A stretch of DNA of 64,000 bases from NCBI GenBank assembly GCA_964016885.1, contig OZ024742.1, positions 37,200,001 to 37,264,000 of the forward strand, in the 5' to 3' direction. Each line of letters opens with the position of its first letter. The first letter of the stretch is position 1. Under the pieces are notes generated by a model, which saw only the letters and a list, made by a program, of their open reading frames with translations, was not told the origin of the DNA and ran no database searches. Made by a program: the position numbers and the translations under genes. This document shows, in pieces, positions 5,246-29,600 of the stretch. Origin of the DNA: Eledone cirrhosa (taxonomy: Eukaryota).

Positions 5246-5391
5246 GCGTATAATAATGTGTGCGTATAATAATATAAATAAATATACATTATATATTTGT
5301 GATAATTTCAGTAATACCATATATTATAGTGCATAGTTTTTTTACTTATTTTCTAATAATACAAACATAAATGTGCCTTATACTCGTTTTC

Positions 5392-5800
5392 AATTTGTGT
5401 ACACTCTGATATATGTTTATAAATATGAATATGTTGTGTGTGTATAGTTCGTTTTTCATGATCCTCCTAAAGTGACTTGATAAGTATTATATATATTGAA
5501 TGTACGTATTGTATGTTTAATAATATACTGTATGTTTGTTTACAAACTTTTTGAATGCCATTCACTATGAATTCTAACGTCACATACCTAGCTTCGGCAA
5601 AAGCAAAGGCAAGTAATCAACGGTGACCATTTCTCACTTGTAAATGGTTGTCAAGACTACATACCCCTTCGCTTTTGCCGAAAGCTATAGAAGCTGGATT
5701 CTTATAGAATTCCAGTTATATTTATGAACTGTTGAAACTCATTTGCATACAGAGTGGTTGCCGGCTCAGCATCAATTATTTCAGAGCACCGATACAAATT
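5392..5800 (-). mobile_element. Small non-coding hammerhead-bearing element, diverged member of the family at 47487 and 52864
   Basis: Shares GATTCTTATAGAATT, TACAGAG.GGTTGCCGG, CAGAGC.CC.AT and ACTGTATG.TT..TTA.AA in the same order as the other copies; degenerate TIR; TA flank on the right. Left boundary approximate. Confidence 0.6.
5589..5686 (-). ncRNA. Type I hammerhead ribozyme candidate, U3-A8 core variant, GUU cleavage triplet
   Basis: Minus strand: gtagtc TTGACAA c catt taca agtg a GAAA tgg tca ccg TT gattac. Stem I is 6 bp, extended by CGGCAAAAGCGAAGG/CCTTTGCTTTTGCCG. Confidence 0.65.
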
Positions 5801-5881
5801 TATATATATACATATATGTTAGGTAATTCCGAAGGAAAAACAAAGGAAAAAAGAGTGCTCTATGTATAGAACAGAGCTATT

Positions 5882-6118
5882 TAATTAGAAAGTGAACAAC
5901 ACAAAATATAACTACTCCATTACCAAAGGTTTCTGGATCCCAGACAATATTAACATACATCTGTATCGGTCATCAAACAGAGATGTTATGGATAAAAATA
6001 TTTTTTATCCATAATAACTCTGTCTGATGACCAATACAGATGTATATTAATATTGACTGGGATCCAGAAACCTTTGGTAACGGAGTAGTTATATTTTGTG
6101 TTGTTCACTTTCTAATTA
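5882..6118. repeat. ~237-bp near-perfect palindrome (probable inverted PLE pLTR remnant) containing a hammerhead-like motif
   Basis: The arms are reverse complements. Plus strand 6017-6086 reads actctgt CTGATGA ... GAAA cc ttt gg TA acggagt (7-bp stem I). Confidence 0.8.
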
Positions 6119-6329
6119 TATATATATATATATAAACCTGTAGAGCAAATATTTATTATTTCCACAGATTAAAAGTTTAAGCAAACAATTTCTGCTTTTG
6201 CTCTTATAATGAATCTTCTAAAACTAAGATATATATCAATCCATGGGTGCAGATATAAATATTTTGAAAATATGAGTAAATATCACATTAAAAAAATAGT
6301 TAGATATAATGATGACATGTGAAAATGTT

Positions 6330-13110: not shown

Positions 13111-13194
13111 CGTTATTCCGGGTTGAATCGGAGGTAACCACAGTAAGTAAGGTACTCAATACATAGCAGAGTATAACAGTTTTAATATAGATGA

Positions 13195-13245
13195 GATTCT
13201 ACAGGACTAGAACTGTTTCATTCATTAGAAATCATCAGGAATCTG
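13195..13245 (-). ncRNA. Type I hammerhead ribozyme in pLTR (sense copy)
   Basis: Reverse complement of 16791-16841. Confidence 0.75.
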
Positions 13246-13789
13246 GGTATCAAAAAATAAATATGGTATTTATAGGTCTCTACAAGTGGTAGGAGAGGGT
13301 GGGGAGTGGGATGGGTGCAGGTCATTGGTTGATAGAGAAGGGAATTCATTAAAGGCTAATTCTACATAGCTATAGTTAATTTATATTTATTTATGTTTTT
13401 AGAGTAACAAAGGCAGACAGAATTCTATAAACAGGTTCCGGATGGCATACCATTCCTTGTCAATAAGTTTCTCTTAAGCTAGCAGATGTCTATAAAATCA
13501 GTGGGGGGTCATTCATGCCTCGATAGAATTAAAGAAAAGGGAGATTCTTTAAAAGCTAAAGTCATTAAGTTCTGCTAAGTGACAAAGGTCTAGGGAATTC
13601 TGCAGACAGATTCAAAATACTGAGTGCATATCTTACTATTATCTTCGAACTTCTCTTAAACTAATCAACAATATGCCAAATCAACAGACACATTCACAAA
13701 AAAAACAAAAAAACCCCAAAAAACAAAAAAAACAGAAAAACAAAAAAAACCACACCTAAAAAAACAAAAAACCACACATACTCACTCAC

Positions 13790-15766: not shown

Positions 15767-15840
15767 CACATACATATATATATACACACACAACACATAC
15801 ACATATACACATATACAAACAAATATATACACATACAAGT
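13790..15840. repeat. Highly degenerate (CA/TA)n array
   Basis: Read directly; C-rich on the plus strand, unlike neighbouring arrays. Confidence 0.95.
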
Positions 15841-16015
15841 AAATAGGTACTCAATAAATATACGCATATACACAGGCACATAAAGACACCTCTACAGGCA
15901 GAAAAAGTAGATACAAAAGAGGTACTCACATGACCATAGTGGCCGTATTTCAGGTTGAGGAGGGGTGGGGGTAGGGTGGGGAGGAGGTATAGGGGCCAAT
16001 AGGGGGAGGTCGTTT

Positions 16016-16320
16016 TTAGCCATCGGGCTTTAACACTGGCTTAAAGTGTTTGAATGTTGCAAAGTTCTTGTGCATGCAGTTCGGGCAGTGTTCAGAGAGT
16101 TTGTTCAGTAGCGGGCCCTTGGCGAATAAAATTTCGTAACTCTCTGAAATACAAAGGTCGCAGCCCTTGTGTCCTCCGTCGTAAGAGCGCGCTTTCTGGA
16201 GTATTTTCCAATTAAGCGTGAAGGGGGTGGAGTTCCTTTTGAGGTCCCAAACGTAGGAGGCGAGTGTTGTTTGGTTTGATTTATCCGGTCTTCTGAAGGA
16301 GTGGGTATGGTCATACCTTT
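16016..16320 (-). pseudogene. C-terminal fragment of a PLE GIY-YIG endonuclease
   Basis: RYDHTHSF...TTLASYVWDLK...LNWKILQKARSY....CDLCISESYEIL...LLNK.SE....CMH aligns by eye with the C-terminus of the 772-aa ORF. Confidence 0.85.
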
Positions 16321-16790
16321 GGGTTTTTTTGTTTTTTTGTGAATGTGTCTGTTGATTTGGCATATTGTTGATTAGTTTAAGAGAAGTTCGAAGATAATAG
16401 TAAGATATGCACTCAGTATTTTGAATCTGTCTGCAGAATTCCCTAGACCTTTGTCACTTAGCAGAACTTAATGACTTTAGCTTTTAAAGAATCTCCCTTT
16501 TCTTTAATTCTATCGAGCATGAATGACCCCCCACTGATTTTATAGACATCTGCTAGCTTAAGAGAAACTTATTGACAAGGAATGGTATGCCATCCGGAAC
16601 CTGTTTATAGAATTCTGTCTGCCTTTGTTACTCTAAAAACATAAATAAATATAAATTAACTATAGCTATGTAGAATTAGCCTTTAATGAATTCCCTTCTC
16701 TATCAACCAATGACCTGCACCCATCCCACTCCCCACCCTCTCCTACCACTTGTAGAGACCTATAAATACCATATTTATTTTTTGATACCC

Positions 16791-16841
16791 AGATTCCTGA
16801 TGATTTCTAATGAATGAAACAGTTCTAGTCCTGTAGAATCT
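16791..16841 (+). ncRNA. Type I hammerhead ribozyme in the inverted pLTR copy
   Basis: agattc CTGATGA t ttc taat gaa t GAAA cag ttctagtc ctg TA gaatct: 6-bp stem I, canonical core, GUA site, U.U at the base of stem II. Confidence 0.75.
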
Positions 16842-16862
16842 CATCTATATTAAAACTATATG

Positions 16863-17122: not shown

Positions 17123-20100
17123 AAATTTCAGGTTATCAATAATGTAGTGATAATATATCGTTACGTTAGAGATGAACAGCGTACGTGTAGGTTTGCTCAA
17201 CGAGTATAAATTATATTCCGGAGAAATGTAGAAAGGATGAATATAAAATGAAAGTGCTTTTGTTAAAAAAGGAATTTATTAGGTATTGACATATGTTTCT
17301 GTAACAGACCGAATACCTATGTATCGCTGCTTGCGTAATCATATAATGTTAGCAAGTATTCGATAGCAAATGTATAATCAGTTGTCACTTCTTCAGAGAT
17401 TTTGGATAAACTGGATAAAATCAGAAAAATTGAAGTATTTATATTAGTAAAAGAGGAAGGAACAGAGGGGATAGAATATGACAGATGGTAAAATAATTTA
17501 CTGCTAAACAAGTATATAATGGGATTTTAATGAGAATACCATGAGTAAATCTAAATAAGAATTTTGGGAGTGCCGATTTTAATCTCTACTTGACCAACTG
17601 GACAGTGGACAGGGCTGGTCATTTGGTGCAGTAGTATTAATCATAAAGTGTCAATTGGAGAAGGGGGAGATTTCGATTGCTACTAAATAACATCAATGCT
17701 AGTAGTCAGCTGGTATTTCCACTAGGGAATTGAATCAAAAAATCAGAAATCACATTTTATCTATAGCAGTTTGTATTAAAAGGTAAATAATAGAAGAGTT
17801 GATAGAATTAAGACTAATAAAGAATGTTCATATCTATTTTGACAATCAAACGGGGATAGAGACAGGCGTTCAATCCTGGTAGTATTTATAATATGAAAAT
17901 GTAGATTTTAAGCGATGGTTACAGTATAACGATCGCTCTATTCTGTTATTTAATAAAATGTTTTTGGATTTCATAATACAAAATAATTCTACATTACATA
18001 ATTTACAAAATTCCTGTCCATTGGAATATGGGGGGGCAGTTGCTATTATATCCCATTTTAGGTGAAATTGTTGGTTATTTTCACGCAGCTGCCAAGCCTT
18101 GTCTGCGAGTGTTGTTACATAACGCTGGTTTTCATGTTTTATCGAATAACGATGTCTATAAAGGCGTGATTTAAAGGAGGTGGCTGTAGATCCCACATAG
18201 TACCACTTCTGTCTATCCGATTCGATAGTACATTTGTATACGATGTTGCGTTCAAGACACTGATTGTTCAACGGACACATTCCTGGTTGGACACAGTTGC
18301 AATTACAATTTTGCGTTGTTGTATTGCCATGGATGGGTTGATGAGGTTGCTTATGCAGGACAGGATGTTGTTTGTTGTTTTGTGATGTTATAGCTAATGT
18401 TTTACGTGTATTGTTATGTGTTGGAAGGCGTTTATACAACCGTTTTGCGTTAAGCATTTTTATATGTTGTTCAATATTAGGGGCGGTTGAATATGAAAGT
18501 CGGATGGTGTTAGGGTTTAAGATTTTATTATATTTATGTGATGTTGGAAAGTGTTTTCTAACTAATCGAAAGAATTTTGTGGGTAGATTGGTTTTAATAG
18601 ATTTGTTATAGACCGGGTTGTACCAGATATACTCCTTACATCGCCTTCTGTTTGGTGGTGTGCGACTATTATTGTGTCTATTGCGGTAGTGTATGTATGG
18701 TGGTGATTCTGTGCTATTTCTACTCCTATGTGATTTATTTTGGGTGTTTTGGTGATCATTGACTATATACTCTATATTATCTAGGTGACCGGCTTTCCTA
18801 AGTGCATCATCATAATACTCGGCATGTTCTTTGAAGGTTTGTTGGTTGGACGATAGGCGGGAGATTCTAAGAGAAACATTTCTAGGGATGGATTTAATTA
18901 TAGAGAGTGGATGGTTAGAACTCGTATTTACATATTTAAGGTTCTCATTTAGTTTATGGAACGGTTTAATCGTATCTGTATTGAGATTGAAAGTAACATC
19001 AAGGAAATTGACCTCTTTGAGGTTATATTCAAATGTAATATTTAATCCTAGTTCTTTAAAAAGTTTTCTGATATTTTTACGCATCCTTTCTAAATTCTGG
19101 TTATTCATATTCTTAACTAATAGGAGCGCATCGTCACGGTAAATTCCACCGTGGAGATCCTTGAATTTTCCTTGTAATCTGTGGGTGATATAAATTCCCA
19201 CAAGATCTGTTACTTCCGCCGAATCATTAGAACCCATAGTGATATCAAAATTAGAAGGTCTATCTTTGCGAACCCAGTAGCTATCATCGAATTTAACTAT
19301 AGTTTTTCTCGCTTCCATAATAATTTTAATTTCAGCATCCGTAAGGTCGGAATTATCCTTAGCGAACGAAAGAGCTTCATGTAGAGTATCAGGTGAAATT
19401 GAGGAATAATATTCATCAATATCAAACTGAATAAATTTTGATTTTTTCTTATCAGTAATGTTGTTAAACCATCTTATTGCTTCATGAGTGTTACCCCATA
19501 GTTTAATCTCTACTTTAACCTTAACTTGGGGGATAATTCTGTCTAGTATATATTTGCTAATTTTACCTATATCAGATTTAGAGGGGCATATAAGTCTAAT
19601 ATTAGGGTTAGTATCGAAGTTTACCTTGTGGTCCTTCAGGTTGAAGGATGGTATAGCTGGTGTTAAGGGTTGCGTTCTATCGTCAATACAAAGTTTTTTA
19701 ACAATATCACATGCCGAGTTGTTGATGTTTTTAAGTGTGGCTTCATTAGTTTTCCTGTATTTTTTATGCAATTCCTTACGGATGAAGTTATTGTAAGTGT
19801 CCACATCCATGGTATATACGTTTGATGTTTTGTCTGCTCTAACAATAACTCCATTGGCGTTTTTTAGATTATTGAGCAGTGCCATGATGTCATTCTGTAG
19901 TTTATTGTTCTTACGTTTTGTAAATTTGATCTCCATGATCATATCCATTAGGTCTTGTTCAAATGCATCCAAAAGTGGGTTTGAGGGTGGGTTCTTGTAA
20001 GATTTAAATCCAAATTTATCCTTGTTAAGATCCGATGTTTGGTTTATACGGCTTTTGTCAAAATGGAATGTTTTCCATCTGATTCGTCGAATAAAATCAT

Positions 20101-20538
20101 TGGTCCTTCGTATCATACCTAGAATATATTCCCTTTTTGCCTGAATAGGTATGTTTTTTAACGACATATCCAATTGGTGCCTTTCCATTTTAGAAGCGTA
20201 TGCTGAATTAGTTGCTCAACTGTATAGGAGATTAATAAAATTTCAGGTTATCAATAATGTAGTGATAATATATCGTTACGTTAGAGATGAACAGCGTACG
20301 TGCAGGTTTGCTCAACGAGTATAAATTATATTCCGGAGAAATGTAGAAAGGATGAATATAAAATGAAAGTGCTTTTGTTAAAAAAGGAATTTATTAGGTA
20401 TTGACATATGTTTCTGTAACAGACCGAATACCTATGTATCGCTGCTTGCGTAATCATATAATGTTAGCAAGTATTCGATAGCAAATGTATAATCAGTTGT
20501 CACTTCTTCAGAGATTTTGGATAAACTGGATAAAATCA
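17121..20538 (-). mobile_element. Apparently intact, young Penelope-like retroelement (Hydra-clade-like) with direct pseudo-LTRs, inserted in (TA)n
   Basis: 303-bp direct repeats 17121-17423 and 20236-20538 (one mismatch seen) flank an uninterrupted RT-GIY-YIG ORF. Confidence 0.93.
17870..20188 (-). CDS. PLE polyprotein: reverse transcriptase plus C-terminal GIY-YIG endonuclease, 772 aa
   Basis: Motifs RADK, FIQFDIDEYYSSI, ITMGS, GIYRDDAL, NFLDVTF, SNHP, CNC-x5-CPL...CL, IVY...YVG and CKLC..E. Confidence 0.93.
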   Translation of the reverse strand: MERHQLDMSLKNIPIQAKREYILGMIRRTNDFIRRIRWKTFHFDKSRINQTSDLNKDKFGFKSYKNPPSNPLLDAFEQDLMDMIMEIKFTKRKNNKLQNDIMALLNNLKNANGVIVRADKTSNVYTMDVDTYNNFIRKELHKKYRKTNEATLKNINNSACDIVKKLCIDDRTQPLTPAIPSFNLKDHKVNFDTNPNIRLICPSKSDIGKISKYILDRIIPQVKVKVEIKLWGNTHEAIRWFNNITDKKKSKFIQFDIDEYYSSISPDTLHEALSFAKDNSDLTDAEIKIIMEARKTIVKFDDSYWVRKDRPSNFDITMGSNDSAEVTDLVGIYITHRLQGKFKDLHGGIYRDDALLLVKNMNNQNLERMRKNIRKLFKELGLNITFEYNLKEVNFLDVTFNLNTDTIKPFHKLNENLKYVNTSSNHPLSIIKSIPRNVSLRISRLSSNQQTFKEHAEYYDDALRKAGHLDNIEYIVNDHQNTQNKSHRSRNSTESPPYIHYRNRHNNSRTPPNRRRCKEYIWYNPVYNKSIKTNLPTKFFRLVRKHFPTSHKYNKILNPNTIRLSYSTAPNIEQHIKMLNAKRLYKRLPTHNNTRKTLAITSQNNKQHPVLHKQPHQPIHGNTTTQNCNCNCVQPGMCPLNNQCLERNIVYKCTIESDRQKWYYVGSTATSFKSRLYRHRYSIKHENQRYVTTLADKAWQLRENNQQFHLKWDIIATAPPYSNGQEFCKLCNVELFCIMKSKNILLNNRIERSLYCNHRLKSTFSYYKYYQD

Positions 20539-20544
20539 TATATA

Positions 20545-21646
20545 TCATCATCATCATCATCACCGTTTTACGTCCGTTCTTCCACGCTAGCATGGGTTAG
20601 ACGGGTTGTCCTGTTGTGGGCAGTGTCTGGTCGGCTGACCATGCCTTGCTCATACAGGAACTGATCTGGCTTGATTTCTACAGCTGGATGCCCTTCCTAA
20701 CACCAACCTCATTTACAGTGAGTGCTGGGTGCTTTTTCGTGGCGCCTACACGTCCACTTTACAGTGTGGGCTGGGTGCTTTTTTGCCGTGGCACCTCCAC
20801 GACCACCTTGCGGTGGGGGGGGGGGGGGGGGCATATTGTTTATATGCTTCAGCATGTACCCATGGGAGGTCGGGTACCCTGTATTACTGCGTGACGCCAG
20901 AAGTCACGGTCGTGTGTCATTGACTTTGAGAGGTGTAGTTGGGTAAGGTCGGCTTTTATCACCTCATCCCAAGTCATCTTGGGTCTCCCCACTCCGCGGT
21001 TTCCATCAACTTCTAGTGCTCTGCACCTTTTTATGCAGCTGTCATCCTTCATACGCATCACATGTCCATACCAGCGTAACCGCCTCTCCTGCACGCAGCA
21101 TTTGATTCCTCTTATGCTCAGTCTCTCTCTCAATTCATTTATGCTTTGTCGTTCACGTATATTACTGTTACACATCCATCGGAGCATGCAGGCTTCGTTT
21201 CTCTCTAATCTACGTAAGTCTTCCACCTTCAGCGCCCGGGTCTCACTACCATGCAACATCGCTGTTCGGATACACGCATCATACAGTCTGCCTTTCATTC
21301 TGAGGGAGAAGCCTTTTGCAGCTAGCAGTGGTAGTAGTTCCCTAAACTTCTTCCATCCCGTTCTTACCCTAGTTATTGTACTTTCTGAGCACCCACCTCC
21401 GTTGCTAATTCGGTCACCTAGGTAGCAGAAGCTGTCTACTGTTTCTACAGGGCCCTCCCAGAGATTGGTGGTACTTGTTTCCTGTGGCTGTTTGCTTGCT
21501 GTTTCAGCACAGCTGCTGCATGTGAATCCTACATTCTTAATTAAGCTTCCTGAGATCCCGCTACATCTCTTGTGTACCCATTGTTTGCATTTGGGGCAAA
21601 GAATGGAGTTCCTACCTACACCTTTCCTACATACTGAGCAAGGCCA
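20545..21646 (-). mobile_element. RTE LINE subfamily A, 5'-truncated
   Basis: Near identical to 29065-30164; ORF end [10 protein letters not shown]; (GAT)n tail; the 5' end abuts (TA)n. Confidence 0.93.
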
Positions 21647-21649
21647 ATG

Positions 21650-21680
<31 letters not shown>

Positions 21681-21879
21681 GTATATATATATATGTATAT
21701 ATATATATGTGTATATATATATATGTATATATATATATGTATATATATATATGTATATATATGTATATATATGTATATATATATGTGTATATATATGTAT
21801 ATATATATATGTATATATATATGTATATATATATATGTATATATATATGTATATATATATGTATATGTATATGTATATG

Positions 21880-21945
<66 letters not shown>

Positions 21946-21982
21946 CATATATATATTCGTCCGCGGATGGCTAACATAACCC

Positions 21983-24145: not shown

Positions 24146-26309
24146 CATCATCATCATCATCATCAACGTTTAACGTCCGTGTTCCACGCTTGCATGGGTT
24201 TGGACGGGGGTAGTCCCACTTGAGGCAAGAGTGATTGTCTTGCTCGCATAGGACTGTCTGGCAGGTTTTCTACAGTTGGATGCCCTTCCTAACACCAACC
24301 ACATTTACAGTGTGGGTCTGGGAGGTTTTTACCGTGTTGCCTACACGGCCACATTACAGCGTGGACTGTGTGTTTTTTTGTCGTGACACCTACACGATCT
24401 CATTTGTTTCGGCCTCGATGGCGCGGCACCAACATAACTTTACATAGAACGGGGTGGTGTGGATCGGGTGGGGGTGGTGGTGGTGGGACGGGGTGTATTT
24501 TGTTAGAGATGCCTACTGGCTGGAGTAGGTTTTACTATATATTTAGGTAAGGCGGGTCTTCTCTGTTACTGAGTACCGCCAAAGGTCTCGGTCCAGTGAC
24601 ATTGTCTTGGAGAGGTGTAAGTGTGTGATGTCGGAGTTTATCAGCTCGTCCCAGGTTTTTCTAGGTCTGCCTATTCCGTGACTATCGTCTATCTTTATTG
24701 CCCTGCACTTTGTTATACAGCTATCGACTTTCATGCGCATCACGTGTCCATACCAACGTAGCCTTCTCTCGAGTAAACAACATCTGATCCCTCTTATCTC
24801 TAATTTTTTCCTTAGTTCGTTTATGCTTTGCCGTTCACGTATATTACTGTTACACATCCAGCGGAGCATGCAAGCTTCGTTCCTCTCTAGTCTGCGTATA
24901 TCCTCTGCACACAATGCCCAGGTCTCACTGCCATGCAGCATTGCTGTTCGTACGCAGGCATCGTACAACCTGCCTTTCATTTTTAGTGAGAACCCTTTAG
25001 CAGCTAATAGTGGTATAAGCTCTCTGAACTTTTTCCAACCAGTTCTGACTCTAGCTACAGTACTTTCAGAGCACCCTCCCCCACTGCTGATTTTATCGCC
25101 CAGGTAACGGAAGCTGTCCACTATTTCTATAGAACCCTCTGCGCAATTGAAAGAGCTAGTAGTTTGTGGGCACTTGCTGCTACTTATTGCACCAGAGCAC
25201 CGGCCACATGTAAAATCTATGTTCTTAGTTAGCTTACCTGTGATCCCACTACATCTTTTATGCACCCATACTTTGCATTTAGGACATAAAATGGAGTTTC
25301 TACCTACGCCTTTCCTACACACCGAGCACGACCATTTCCCAGAAGGGACCGCCGCCTTGTTTTCTTTCCTACAAACTAGTACTTTGGTCTTAGCCAGGTT
25401 AATTTTAAGTCCTTTTGACTCTAGGCCGTGCTTCCATGTTTGGAATTTCTTCTCTAGCTCGGCCATTGATTCCGCTATGAGTGTCAGGTCGTCTGCGTAT
25501 AGGAGTTCCCATGGGCAGCCTGTCTTGAACTCCTCTGTTATAGCCTGAAGGGCAATAATAAATAGTAGTGGACTGAGAACAGAGCCCTGATGGACGCCAA
25601 CTTTTACGCTAAACTCTTCACTATATTCGTTGTTAATTCTAACCTTGCTGACTGTTTCTTTATACATGGCTTGTATAGCCCTCACAAGCCATTCGTCAAC
25701 GCCTAGTTTTCTAAGAGCCCACCAGATAATGGAGCGGGGGACTCTGTCGAAGGCTTTCTCCAAGTCGACAAAAGCTAAGTAGAGGGGTTTACCTTTAGCT
25801 AGGTACTTCTCCTGTAGTTGTCGTACTATGAAAAGAGCGTCTGTGGTACTTTTGCCTGACACAAACCCGAACTGCATTTCATCTAGGTCAATTCTCTCTC
25901 TGATTAGTTGCGCTATTACTTTTTCCGTGACCTTCATGACCTGGTCGATTAATTTAATGCCTCTATAGTTACTCCTATCTAGGGCGTCTCCTTTACCCTT
26001 ATAACAGTTAACGATGATGCTGCTATGCCAGTCCTTCGGAACAACCCCATTCTGTACGACTTGGTTAACTATGCGGGTGACCATGGTGTGTCCCACCGTG
26101 CCAGATGCCTTCAGCATCTCAGCAACTATTTCCGAAGGCCCAGCCGCCTTACCAGTCTTCATATCCTTGATTGCCTTACTTATTATACTCCCCTCGACTA
26201 ACACTGCTGGTCCCTCTATTGGGTCGATATGGGGGAGACTGCCTTTCTCCCAATTATTCTCCTCATTTAGTAGCCTTTCATAGTGACACTTCCAAGCTAC
26301 CTTCTTATC
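24145..26309 (-). mobile_element. RTE LINE subfamily B, 5'-truncated, with open RT domain
   Basis: KGKGD..NYRGIKL, QFGF, FVDLEKAFDRV, GVHQGSVLSPLLF, YADD and CCHC-like insert; stop at 24543; long 3'UTR and (GAT)n. Confidence 0.95.
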
Positions 26310-26498
26310 TGTATATATATATATATATATATAGTATATATATGTATATATATATATATATATAGTATATATATGTATATATATATATATAGTATATATA
26401 TGTATATATATATATATATATAGTATATATATGTATATATATATATATAGTATATATATGTATATATATAATATATATATATAATATAATATAGTATA

Positions 26499-26698
26499 NN
26501 NNNNNNNNNNNNNNNNNNNNNNNNNNNNNNNNNNNNNNNNNNNNNNNNNNNNNNNNNNNNNNNNNNNNNNNNNNNNNNNNNNNNNNNNNNNNNNNNNNNN
26601 NNNNNNNNNNNNNNNNNNNNNNNNNNNNNNNNNNNNNNNNNNNNNNNNNNNNNNNNNNNNNNNNNNNNNNNNNNNNNNNNNNNNNNNNNNNNNNNNNN
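26499..26698. other. Assembly gap (200 N)
   Basis: Read directly. Confidence 1.
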
Positions 26699-29600
26699 GA
26701 TGAGCTGGGGAATACACGGCAACTCTGAATCAATAGATGAAAAATGAATCTGCGAGCTACCAAGCACCCACGTGAAGCGCCAACCAGAGACCCCCTCCCC
26801 TACGAGTGTCGACAAATGCCCAAAACTCCGAGTTGGTACCATCAATGTAGGCTCAATGAAAGGAAGAGCAGGAGAAATCGTAGAAATGCTAGAGCGAAAG
26901 GAAGTTGATGTATGCTGTGTGCAAGAGACTAGATGGAGAGGAGGGTCTGCTAGAGTCCTTGTAGGAAAAAGCCAGTGCTAACAAATTTTTCTGGGTGGGA
27001 AATGACGATGGGATGGGGTGGTGTAGGTATACTATTAGCTGACAAGTGGGTAGATAAAGTAATCTCAGTGTACAGGGTAAATGCAAGAATCATTAAACTC
27101 AGACTAGTCCTGAATAAGACAATTACCACAATAATATCAGCTTACGCACCCCAATCGGGGCTGCCAGACGAACTTAAGGATAGGTTTTACGAGTCCCTAA
27201 TACACACTACTGCTCTAACAGACGACAAGGACTTCCTAATCATTGCAGGAGATTTTAACGGACACGTAGGTAAACACTGCGACGGCTTCAATAGAGTACA
27301 TGGAGGCCATGGAGTTGGCACAAGGAATGAGGAAGGATTCAGACTTCTAGAATTCTGCGACGCCAATGACATGTCGATATGTAACACAAACTTTAAAAAA
27401 CCCGACAACCACCTGATCACCTATAGATCAGGGGAGCACTCTAGTCAGTTAGATTTTATCCTCATCAGAGGACGTGACAGATGGACGGTCGTAAACACAA
27501 AAGCCTTCCCTAGTGAGGAATGTACATCCCAACATAGCTTAGTTGTCAGCGACCTCACGGTCAGAACTAGACGAGCCCTGAAACAGAGGCCAACCTGGAG
27601 AAGAAAGATCTGGAAGCTGAAAGTCCCCTCAACCAGTAACAGATTTAAAGATATTTTACTCAACGCCTACGACAGTAAAGAAGAACAGATAGAGACATTT
27701 AACGTAGAAGAGAACTGGGAGTTCCTAAAAAATAACTTACTAGAGGCGACGGATGAGGTTTGTGGCTGGAGTAAGACCTCAAGCAGGAGGAGAGTGACTT
27801 GGTGGTGGAACAATAAGGTAGATGAAGCAGTCAAGGCCAAGAGACAGGCATGGAAAGAATGGAAGAACGGGGGGAGCAGGGTACATTACATAGAGACCAA
27901 GAGGAAGCTAGGCGACAAGTATACTTAGCTAGGAGGGAAGCAGAGGATAGAAAATTCAAGCATGTTTTACAACGTGAGGACCAGAAACAGGAGTATTCAA
28001 GATTGCGAGGCAGTGTGTCAGAGATAGTTGTGATGTCATTGGAGAGAAGTGTATCCGGAATGATAAAGGTGAGCTTGCCCTCACAAGTGCTGAGAAGAAA
28101 GATGCATGGAAGAGTCATTATGATAGATTACTAAATGAGGAGAATGCATGGGAAGAAGAGACCCTACCCCACGTAGACCCTATAGAGGGACCAGCAGTAC
28201 AAGTCAGCGGCAGCGTAGTAAGTAAGGCAATCAGAGATATGAAGATAGGGAAGGCAACCGGTCCATCGGGTATAGCTGCCGAGATGCTGAAGGCATCTGG
28301 GTCTGTAGGTCACACTATAACCACACGTATCGTTAACCAGGTAATACTAGAGGGGGGCCATACCAAAAGATGGTGCAGTAGCATCATTGTCAACTGCTAC
28401 AAAGGTAAAGGCGATGCACTAGATAGAGGAAACTATAGAGGTATAAAGTTGATGACCAGGTCATGAAAGTAACAGAAAGAGTTATAGCACAGCTGATTAG
28501 GGACCGGGTTGAATATAGACGAGATGCAATTTGGGTTTGTTCCAGGGAAAGGCACCACTGATGCGCTCTTCCTTGTGAGGCAATTACAGGAAAAGTACCT
28601 AGCTAAAAGTAAGCCACTCTACTTGGCATTTGTCGACCTTGAGAAAGCCTTTGACAGAGTTCCACGTGCAGTAATCTGGTGGGCTCTTAGAAAACTAGGA
28701 GTAGATGAATGGCTTGTGAAAGCGGTACAAGCCATGTATAGGGGAGCAGTCAGCAAAGTTAGGATTGGCAATGAGTATAGCGAGGAATTTAGCGTACAGG
28801 TTGGGGTCCACCAGGGCTCTGTTCTTAGCCCTCTCCTGTTCATCATAGTCCTGCAGGCAATAACGAGGAGTTTAAGACCGGATGCCCATGGGAACTCCTG
28901 TATGCTGATGACCTCGCACTCATAGCTGAATCTATGGTAGAACTAGAGAATAAATTCCAAACCTGGAAGCAGGACTAGAGAGAAAGGGCCTCAAAGTCAA
29001 CATGACAAAGACTAAGGTCCTTATAAGTAGACGAGAAAACAGAACCCAGATCCCCTCAGGGAAATGGCCTTGCTCAGTATGTAGGAAAGGTGTAGGTAGG
29101 AACTCCATTCTTTGCCCCAAAATGCAAACAATGGGTACACAAGAGATGTAGCGGGATCTCAGGAAGCTTAATTAAGAATGTAGGATTCACATGCAGCAGC
29201 TGTGCTGAAACAGCAAGCAAACAGCCACAGGAAACAAGTACCACCAATCTCTGGGAGGGCCCTGTAGAAACAGTAGACAGCTTCTGCTACCTAGGTGACC
29301 GAATTAGCAACGGAGGTGGGTGCTCAGAAAGTACAATAACTAGGGTAAGAACGGGATGGAAGAAGTTTAGGGAACTACTACACTGCTAGCTGCAAAAGGC
29401 TTCTCCCTCAGAATGAAAGGCAGACTGTATGATGCGTGTATCCGAACAGCGATGTTGCATGGTAGTGAGACCTGGGCGCTGAAGGTGGAAGACTTACGTA
29501 GATTAGAGAGAAACGAAGCCTGCATGCTCGATGGATGTGTAACAGTAATATACGTGAACGACAAAGCATAAATGAATTGAGAGAGAGACTGAGCATAAGA

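Follow-up and report, generated by a model that had tools for sequence, protein, structure and literature searches.

Introduction

Among Penelope-like elements (PLEs), the Cercyon elements of Schistosoma mansoni carry hammerhead motifs with U3-A8 cores, and about 1300 mostly single motifs are reported from this species (Cervera and De la Pena 2014, PMC4209133). The Cercyon motifs are minimal ones, with 7-8 bp in helix II, one additional base between positions 9 and 10.1, and a helix III that is short or missing (PMC4209133). At the level of the element, PLEs with inverted pLTRs and solo pLTRs are described (Schostak 2008, PMC2377424; Arkhipova 2013, PMC3846280; Craig 2021, PMC8557442), the same three reports describe for Penelope inverted terminal repeats that vary between copies, and PLE end modules can contain a short intron (PMC2377424). 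A lizard PLE studied in vitro cuts and extends both strands, starts internally and needs no ribozyme cleavage for insertion (PMC11167929), and PLE hammerhead motifs are reported to cut poorly (PMC4209133); both findings bear on the question of why PLEs keep hammerheads. The non-LTR retrozymes of animals are non-coding units of ~300 nt with low G+C and a type I hammerhead of canonical size, and their defining features are an arrangement in head-to-tail tandems and the formation of circular RNA (Cervera and de la Pena 2020, PMC7229834; Li et al. 2026, bioRxiv 10.64898/2026.07.22.740005). Annotated hammerheads are also present in a squid genome (PMC6962438).

Here we describe a sequence at 5.6 kb of a 64-kb stretch of Eledone cirrhosa DNA, the whole of which is referred to as the window. 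With a probability of roughly 0.74 it represents a decayed member of a hammerhead-carrying repeat family that is ~300 bases in unit length and high in copy number, the repeat being likely a solo or non-autonomous PLE end module (pLTR). The repeat resembles the Cercyon motifs of S. mansoni in U3-A8 core covariation, in type I topology, and in having mostly single, dispersed motifs with high stem variability within one genome. It differs from Cercyon in a 4-bp helix II with a 6-nt loop, a helix III of 3-4 bp and a helix of ~17 bp beyond helix I; with helix II of this length, helix III present and no extra base at 53 kb, it does not have the form of a minimal hammerhead (min-HHR). Variable inverted repeats, microsatellite targets, a hammerhead in the end module and possibly a short intron are shared with PLE pLTR units, whereas the copies here have no linked ORF or direct tandem repeat in the window, and a tail of 30-40 bp, as in PLEs, was not identified. 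Unit size, non-coding character, low G+C and a type I hammerhead of canonical size are shared with retrozymes, from which the repeat is distinguished by inverted ends, the U3-A8 core and single window copies.

A type I hammerhead motif at 5.6 kb

The initial annotation had proposed a minus-strand hammerhead with a U3-A8 core inside a long helix, and all features that it named were found in place. The parts of the motif are as follows.

5613..5660, minus strand: type I hammerhead motif with U3-A8 core
5660-5655, minus strand: 5' strand of helix I
5618-5613, minus strand: 3' strand of helix I, which has 6 bp
5648..5654, minus strand: core from U3 to A9 (UUGACAA)
5647-5634, minus strand: helix II, 3 bp plus a C·A mismatch, with a 6-nt loop
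5630..5633, minus strand: core from G12 to A15.1 (GAAA)
5630-5620, minus strand: helix III, 4 bp, with a 3-nt loop
5619..5621, minus strand: triplet at which cleavage is predicted; GUU in this copy, GUC in the majority of close relatives
5593..5682, minus strand: long outer helix (arms 5666-5682 and 5593-5609) that extends helix I past an internal loop

The conserved core, comprising the 3-8 pair (as its U3-A8 variant), G12-A13-A14 and A15.1-U16.1, is present, and three helices surround it with the ends lying in helix I, 13 of 14 pair positions being formed. The cleavage triplet is GUU, which conforms to the NUH rule, and GUC in the copies at 47 and 53 kb. The pair not formed is the one that closes helix II, where C10.1·A11.1 replaces G10.1-C11.1. 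This pair is typical rather than obligatory, the precedent being the axolotl motif, which is reported to be cleaved weakly although U·U takes the place of the basal pair in its helix II (PMC7229834). The two arms of the outer helix, each of 17 nt, are 94% complementary. The region as a whole has a folding z-score of -6.1, none of 200 shuffles being equally stable, and folds to -46.7 kcal/mol on the minus strand versus -38.1 kcal/mol on the plus strand.

When the window was searched with a strict type I descriptor, only the motifs at 47.7 and 53.1 kb were returned; the 5.6-kb copy was missed because its helix II opens with the C·A mismatch. A relaxed descriptor, in which one helix II mismatch is allowed, gave five matches in the 64 kb, adding the 5.6-kb copy (5654) and an unrelated C3-G8 pair (13238 and 16797) to the two found before (47695 and 53072). 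The relaxed descriptor had no match in 100 block shuffles of the window, and no match was obtained in 20000 shuffles of the 5.6-kb interior.

These shuffles bear on the reading that the motif is a chance pattern within an ordinary repeat hairpin, which is scarcely credible and already largely refuted. Such a reading would account for the mismatched base of helix II, for a minimum-energy fold of the 5.6-kb region that differs from the hammerhead, and for an Rfam scan of the 5.6-kb copy that gave no hammerhead match at E<=10; it is opposed, in addition to the shuffles, by the occurrence of the motif in the same register in a subfamily with different stems, and by the canonical majority letters of its relatives (see below). 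The Rfam hammerhead models carry C3-G8. Hammerhead_HH9 (RF02275), which has the same topology, was aligned over its whole length to the 53-kb copy, yet at a sub-threshold 18.9 bits (gathering score 52, E 0.028). In the scan of the whole window no hammerhead was seen among the 150 of 547 matches listed, all of which were microsatellite and hairpin look-alikes.

In all three copies the hammerhead fold makes up 1e-5 to 4e-7 of the predicted monomer ensemble, as calculated with tertiary contacts ignored. Helix III alone is unstable (-0.2 and 0 kcal/mol), with values of -9.6 and -7.3 for self-pairing. Palindromy of loop III was considered as a sign of dimer action and rejected, random loops dimerising equally well (44% and 24%).

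Comparison with the 47- and 53-kb copies

Sequences homologous to the 5.6-kb repeat are present at 47 and 53 kb, and the segments compared are these.

5488..5802, minus strand: body of the 5.6-kb repeat, homologous to the 47- and 53-kb copies by alignment; read depth rises from about 5490
5392..5487, no strand: span included in the initial annotation, membership unsupported; no significant terminal repeat and little or no read depth from relatives
5697..5711, minus strand: small hairpin upstream of the long helix, the most widely shared block, with the highest read depth
52864..53198, minus strand: best preserved copy of the second subfamily, with 21-nt inverted ends (52864-52884 and 53178-53198, one mismatch)
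53032-53076, minus strand: hammerhead of the 53-kb copy, with G10.1-C11.1 and GUC
47487..47813, minus strand: 47-kb copy, a duplicate of the 53-kb insertion, right end partly deleted
47655-47699, minus strand: hammerhead of the 47-kb copy, with G10.1·U11.1

The left boundary originally placed at 5392 could not be upheld, as homology starts near 5488 and the supposed terminal repeat at 5392 was matched or beaten in 77/300 and 134/300 shuffles. To the right of this point, local alignment of the 5.6-kb and 53-kb copies scored above 500/500 shuffles, both over the full element and over either flank taken singly, and 1/500 shuffles was as good as the alignment of the interiors only. The recurrence of flanking blocks, for which alignment no better than chance had been named as grounds for rejection, was thereby confirmed: three blocks recur, two of which are present exactly three times in the window and at no other places in it, and a repeated end motif has four occurrences in the window. 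The three copies noted previously are thus homologous. However, 47098-47813 and 52476-53190 form a local duplication, containing a SINE-like piece and the hammerhead element and lying inside (TA)n arrays; since the copies at 47 and 53 kb lie in this one duplicated block, 99% identical with the upstream repeat included, they represent one insertion, and the number of independent insertions is two rather than three.

The two subfamilies align over the hammerhead in an ungapped register with the same spacing of 21 nt from U3 to G12, and the distance from the start of the core to a shared block is 42 nt in one and 41 nt in the other. All 11 core letters are identical between the 5.6- and 53-kb motifs, as are 20 of 48 non-core letters. 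Pair changes were tabulated by script from the two independent sequences, a count that is not a formal covariation test. Ten of the 14 hammerhead pair positions are paired in both subfamilies, four with two-sided changes, four with one-sided changes and two unchanged; one position (10.1-11.1) is broken in the 5.6-kb copy and three are broken in the 53-kb copy, namely positions 5 and 6 of helix I and position 4 of helix III. The statement that all helix sequences differ between the copies does not hold for the distal outer helix, in which eight of nine pairs are the same in both subfamilies and the ninth is a two-sided swap, the fifth overall.

The motif is very probably hammerhead-derived and under selection in the family. 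As judged from sequence comparison, the retained core, the covarying stems and the canonical letters of the relatives find their best explanation in selection that acts on the ribozyme of the family's source copies; the earlier proposal of selection on ribozyme function is to this extent supported, the 5.6-kb copy being itself decayed.

Relatives in public reads and decay of the 5.6-kb copy

Four public runs, from at most three samples (X1 and X2 being one sample) and two studies, were compared with positions 5330-5870 at 80% likeness. Summed contig depth, which is not a copy number, rose from 0.4-4.7 in the left flank to 610-2194 across the hairpin and reached 150098/136022 at 5691-5709, the flanks being common to far more relatives than the interior. 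These data indicate a very large, dispersed family with many interiors, the 5.6-kb subfamily making up a small share of it. Two places where reads end, 5573 and 5711, fall on GAATTC sites, which we take to be those of the enzyme used for RAD libraries, and were treated as library cuts.

Variants between the reads and the 5.6-kb copy are available as 40 of 208 rows listed, 13 of these lying between 5595 and 5682. In each of the two contig runs, four of the 13 are majority variants, every one of which gives a canonical letter or pair. They are C15.2 at 5629 (contig depth 630/738 and 395/534; reads 37/39 and 85/87), C17, giving GUC, at 5619 (contig depth 300/411 and 209/285; reads 25/31 and 135/138), C10.4 at 5644 (contig depth 1803/1956 and 1936/2034; reads 31/55 and 26/99), and a G-C pair at 5665-5610 (contig depth 682/736 and 512/555). 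Among the 40 of 208 rows listed there was no core substitution and no majority variant repairing C10.1·A11.1. Some relatives have a deletion of A6 (17/83 and 72/144 reads, with one start each), and some have pair-breaking letters at 5608, 5610 and 5644 (one or two read starts).

As most close relatives have C15.2, GUC and C10.4, the 5.6-kb copy, with GUU and two G-U pairs, is decayed. In its decay C has become U at three places, of which two are CpG sites, and the 47-kb copy shows a single change of this type, at 11.1. That the 5.6-kb copy still cuts efficiently is doubtful, and the GUU site suggested for a cleavage assay makes a poor substrate because the copy is decayed and this triplet is GUC in most close relatives.

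Ends, joints and the kind of element

The features at the ends of the repeat, and the candidate splice sites, are the following.

5747..5764, minus strand: conserved block rich in G+C, with a cluster of junctions to inverted copies at 5750-5764
5777..5802, plus strand: short copy, in inverted orientation, of the opposite end of the family, next to (TA)n; joints 5497/5777 and 5499/5783
5582..5587, minus strand: candidate splice donor immediately 3' of the long helix; a donor-like hexamer at 53002 is its counterpart in the alignment
53002-52882, minus strand: candidate intron of the 53-kb copy, with donor- and acceptor-like sites 121 nt apart

Among the 15 joints listed of 35, seven switch strand and eight skip the hairpin region partly or wholly, or have a diverged interior. 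Two of the strand switches join the family's usual left end to the inverted copy at 5777-5802, and the other five connect 5750-5764 to 5537, 5573, 5577, 5614 and 5663; four of these five occur in each of the two contig runs, and a read from another study also has one. The lengths of the joint sides (41 fits 5497-5537 and 32 fits 5731-5762), together with one contig's loose end, which passes without a break from the right block to minus-strand sequence near 5596, favour a head-to-head topology for the five, and the junction zone at 5750-5764 likely lies near the template's 5' end. The inverted part is about 21-25 nt in the window copies and is estimated at 70-200 nt in the five joints, while the other side is near-fixed. 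At their intact ends the window copies abut (TA)n, an AT-rich target, and these microsatellite flanks mask any target-site duplication. A near-fixed end, an inverted copy of variable length and (TA)n together form a PLE signature rather than the fixed repeat of a MITE.

The MITE reading supposes that an element with true terminal inverted repeats, present in thousands of copies, captured a hammerhead and keeps it working, for example in cutting its own read-through transcripts. It would explain the 21-nt inverted ends at 53 kb, which with their one mismatch were equalled in 0/300 shuffles, as well as the repeated subterminal motif, the TA flanks, the joints that skip the interior and the wider sharing of flanks than of interior. 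This reading is very unlikely, as the inverted length differs between copies, the terminal letters differ between subfamilies and the RNA features are strand-asymmetric. Terminal inverted repeats of fixed length were not found, the 5.4-kb left end having no significant repeat, and no transposase family was matched by the 17 ORFs scanned of 130 listed in the window. There is likewise no tRNA head in the repeat.

A solo descendant of a tandem non-LTR retrozyme, in which a unit of ~300 nt would be cut by its hammerhead, circularised and reverse-transcribed, is unlikely also. The size of the unit fits the ~300-bp monomers with type I hammerheads described in PMC7229834, a helix II of 4 bp and a helix I of 6 bp are canonical by the sizes given in PMC4209133, and solo monomers are reported to be common in retrozyme families (bioRxiv 10.64898/2026.07.22.740005). 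Against these points, a profile search found all window copies to be single, no head-to-tail joint was seen among the 15 of 35 listed, and rolling-circle copying would not be expected to yield a near-fixed 5' junction with an inverted copy. The retrozyme reading overlaps with that of a PLE end module, retrozymes having been proposed to derive from PLEs, but needs head-to-tail masters and circular RNA.

The repeat thus likely behaves as a PLE end module, its membership being putative, and a PLE origin is probable. A short intron, as found in PLE end modules, is suggested as a lead by the candidate splice sites. No copy is linked to a PLE ORF in the 64-kb window. In favour of a PLE origin, the genome does possess PLE machinery, as an uninterrupted PLE-type frame between nearly identical repeats is present in this same window (see below).

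A proposed route of insertion and its significance

For a PLE end module, insertion may proceed as follows. The minus strand would be transcribed, and a PLE reverse transcriptase/GIY-YIG protein supplied in trans would cut AT-rich DNA and reverse-transcribe the RNA in its uncleaved form, starting about 150-170 nt 3' of the ribozyme. The inverted copy of the end, made anew at each insertion, would then be added by renewed priming or by switching of templates. In source copies the ribozyme would cut after GUC; given the instability of helix III in the monomer, it would probably do so in dimeric form or with the help of a protein. The core would be retained, and the stems would drift in pairs, under selection acting on these source copies, and the inserted copies would then decay.

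PLE hammerheads with U3-A8 cores are already published, and the repeat is no new class of ribozyme or element unless the MITE reading is true, in which case a self-cleaving RNA would be maintained in a DNA transposon. In the literature consulted, mostly open-access and exclusive of repeat databases, no description of this repeat family or of a hammerhead-bearing DNA transposon was found. A metagenome scan with a two-block pattern gave no matches, as did a second two-block pattern in viral contigs. An 18-base pattern matched 40 metagenome loci, one further locus was viral, and all were dismissed as chance, none of the 41 continuing past the pattern or having the other blocks at their proper positions. 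The diverged subfamilies, with a U3-A8 core in a frame of canonical size and a long helix, constitute a good natural mutagenesis set for asking why PLEs keep hammerheads. Units of this kind could be misfiled by repeat pipelines as MITEs or SINEs, and are missed by Rfam.

Other elements in the window

A probable intact PLE, identified from its sequence, lies at 17123-20538 on the minus strand, where an uninterrupted frame of 781 codons (17870-20215) is placed between direct repeats of 301 bp that are 99.7% identical. The frame has no Pfam match and is nearest to GIY-YIG/RT clusters in Atlas; we take its motifs to be those named for reverse transcriptase and endonuclease. No relatives of this protein were found in viral or prokaryote genome contigs, and a search for relatives of solved structure gave only weak 14-3-3 matches (E about 0.03). 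At about 17280-17325 (minus strand) the repeat of this PLE contains half a hammerhead, with an 8-bp helix I, GAAAC, a 4-nt palindrome and GUC; the intervening 12 nt are without the usual CUGANGA, and this may be an odd variant. The half hammerhead is 165 nt from the end of the PLE, compared with 171 nt in the 53-kb copy.

Two units of 520 bp, 16339-16857 (plus strand) and 13178-13697 (minus strand), form an inverted pair that is 99.8% identical. Each ends in a type I hammerhead with C3-G8 (core at 16797 and 13238) and U·U at the base of helix II, and the 13.2-kb copy extends beyond the 16.8-kb copy in a PLE-tail-like sequence. The 3' fragment of another PLE at 15840-16339 (minus strand), 34% identical over 96 aa to the C-terminus of the intact ORF, is head to head with 16339-16857 and has a 12-base end motif in common with the tail of the 13.2-kb copy. 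The window's PLE was considered as the partner of the hammerhead repeat and set aside, its terminal repeats being without similarity to it; across eight comparisons, neither of the two PLE-type units in the window showed any likeness to it in the terminal repeats (best, 11/300 shuffles). A likeness among the ends of the PLE-type units and the hammerhead repeat was noted post hoc.

Beside the 5.6-kb copy, positions 5878-6122 form a near-perfect fold-back palindrome with arms of 121 nt, 93% complementary, and a 3-nt spacer. This palindrome cuts off a piece of another very high-copy repeat at 5805-5880 (depth up to 86362), of which no second copy was present among the window matches listed. Elsewhere in the window, frames of non-LTR retrotransposons in which a PHD finger follows the RT domain are found at 24543-26729 (minus strand), 59326-61470 (plus strand), 20849-21970 (minus strand) and 62744-63733 (minus strand), the RT domain being matched in three of the four.
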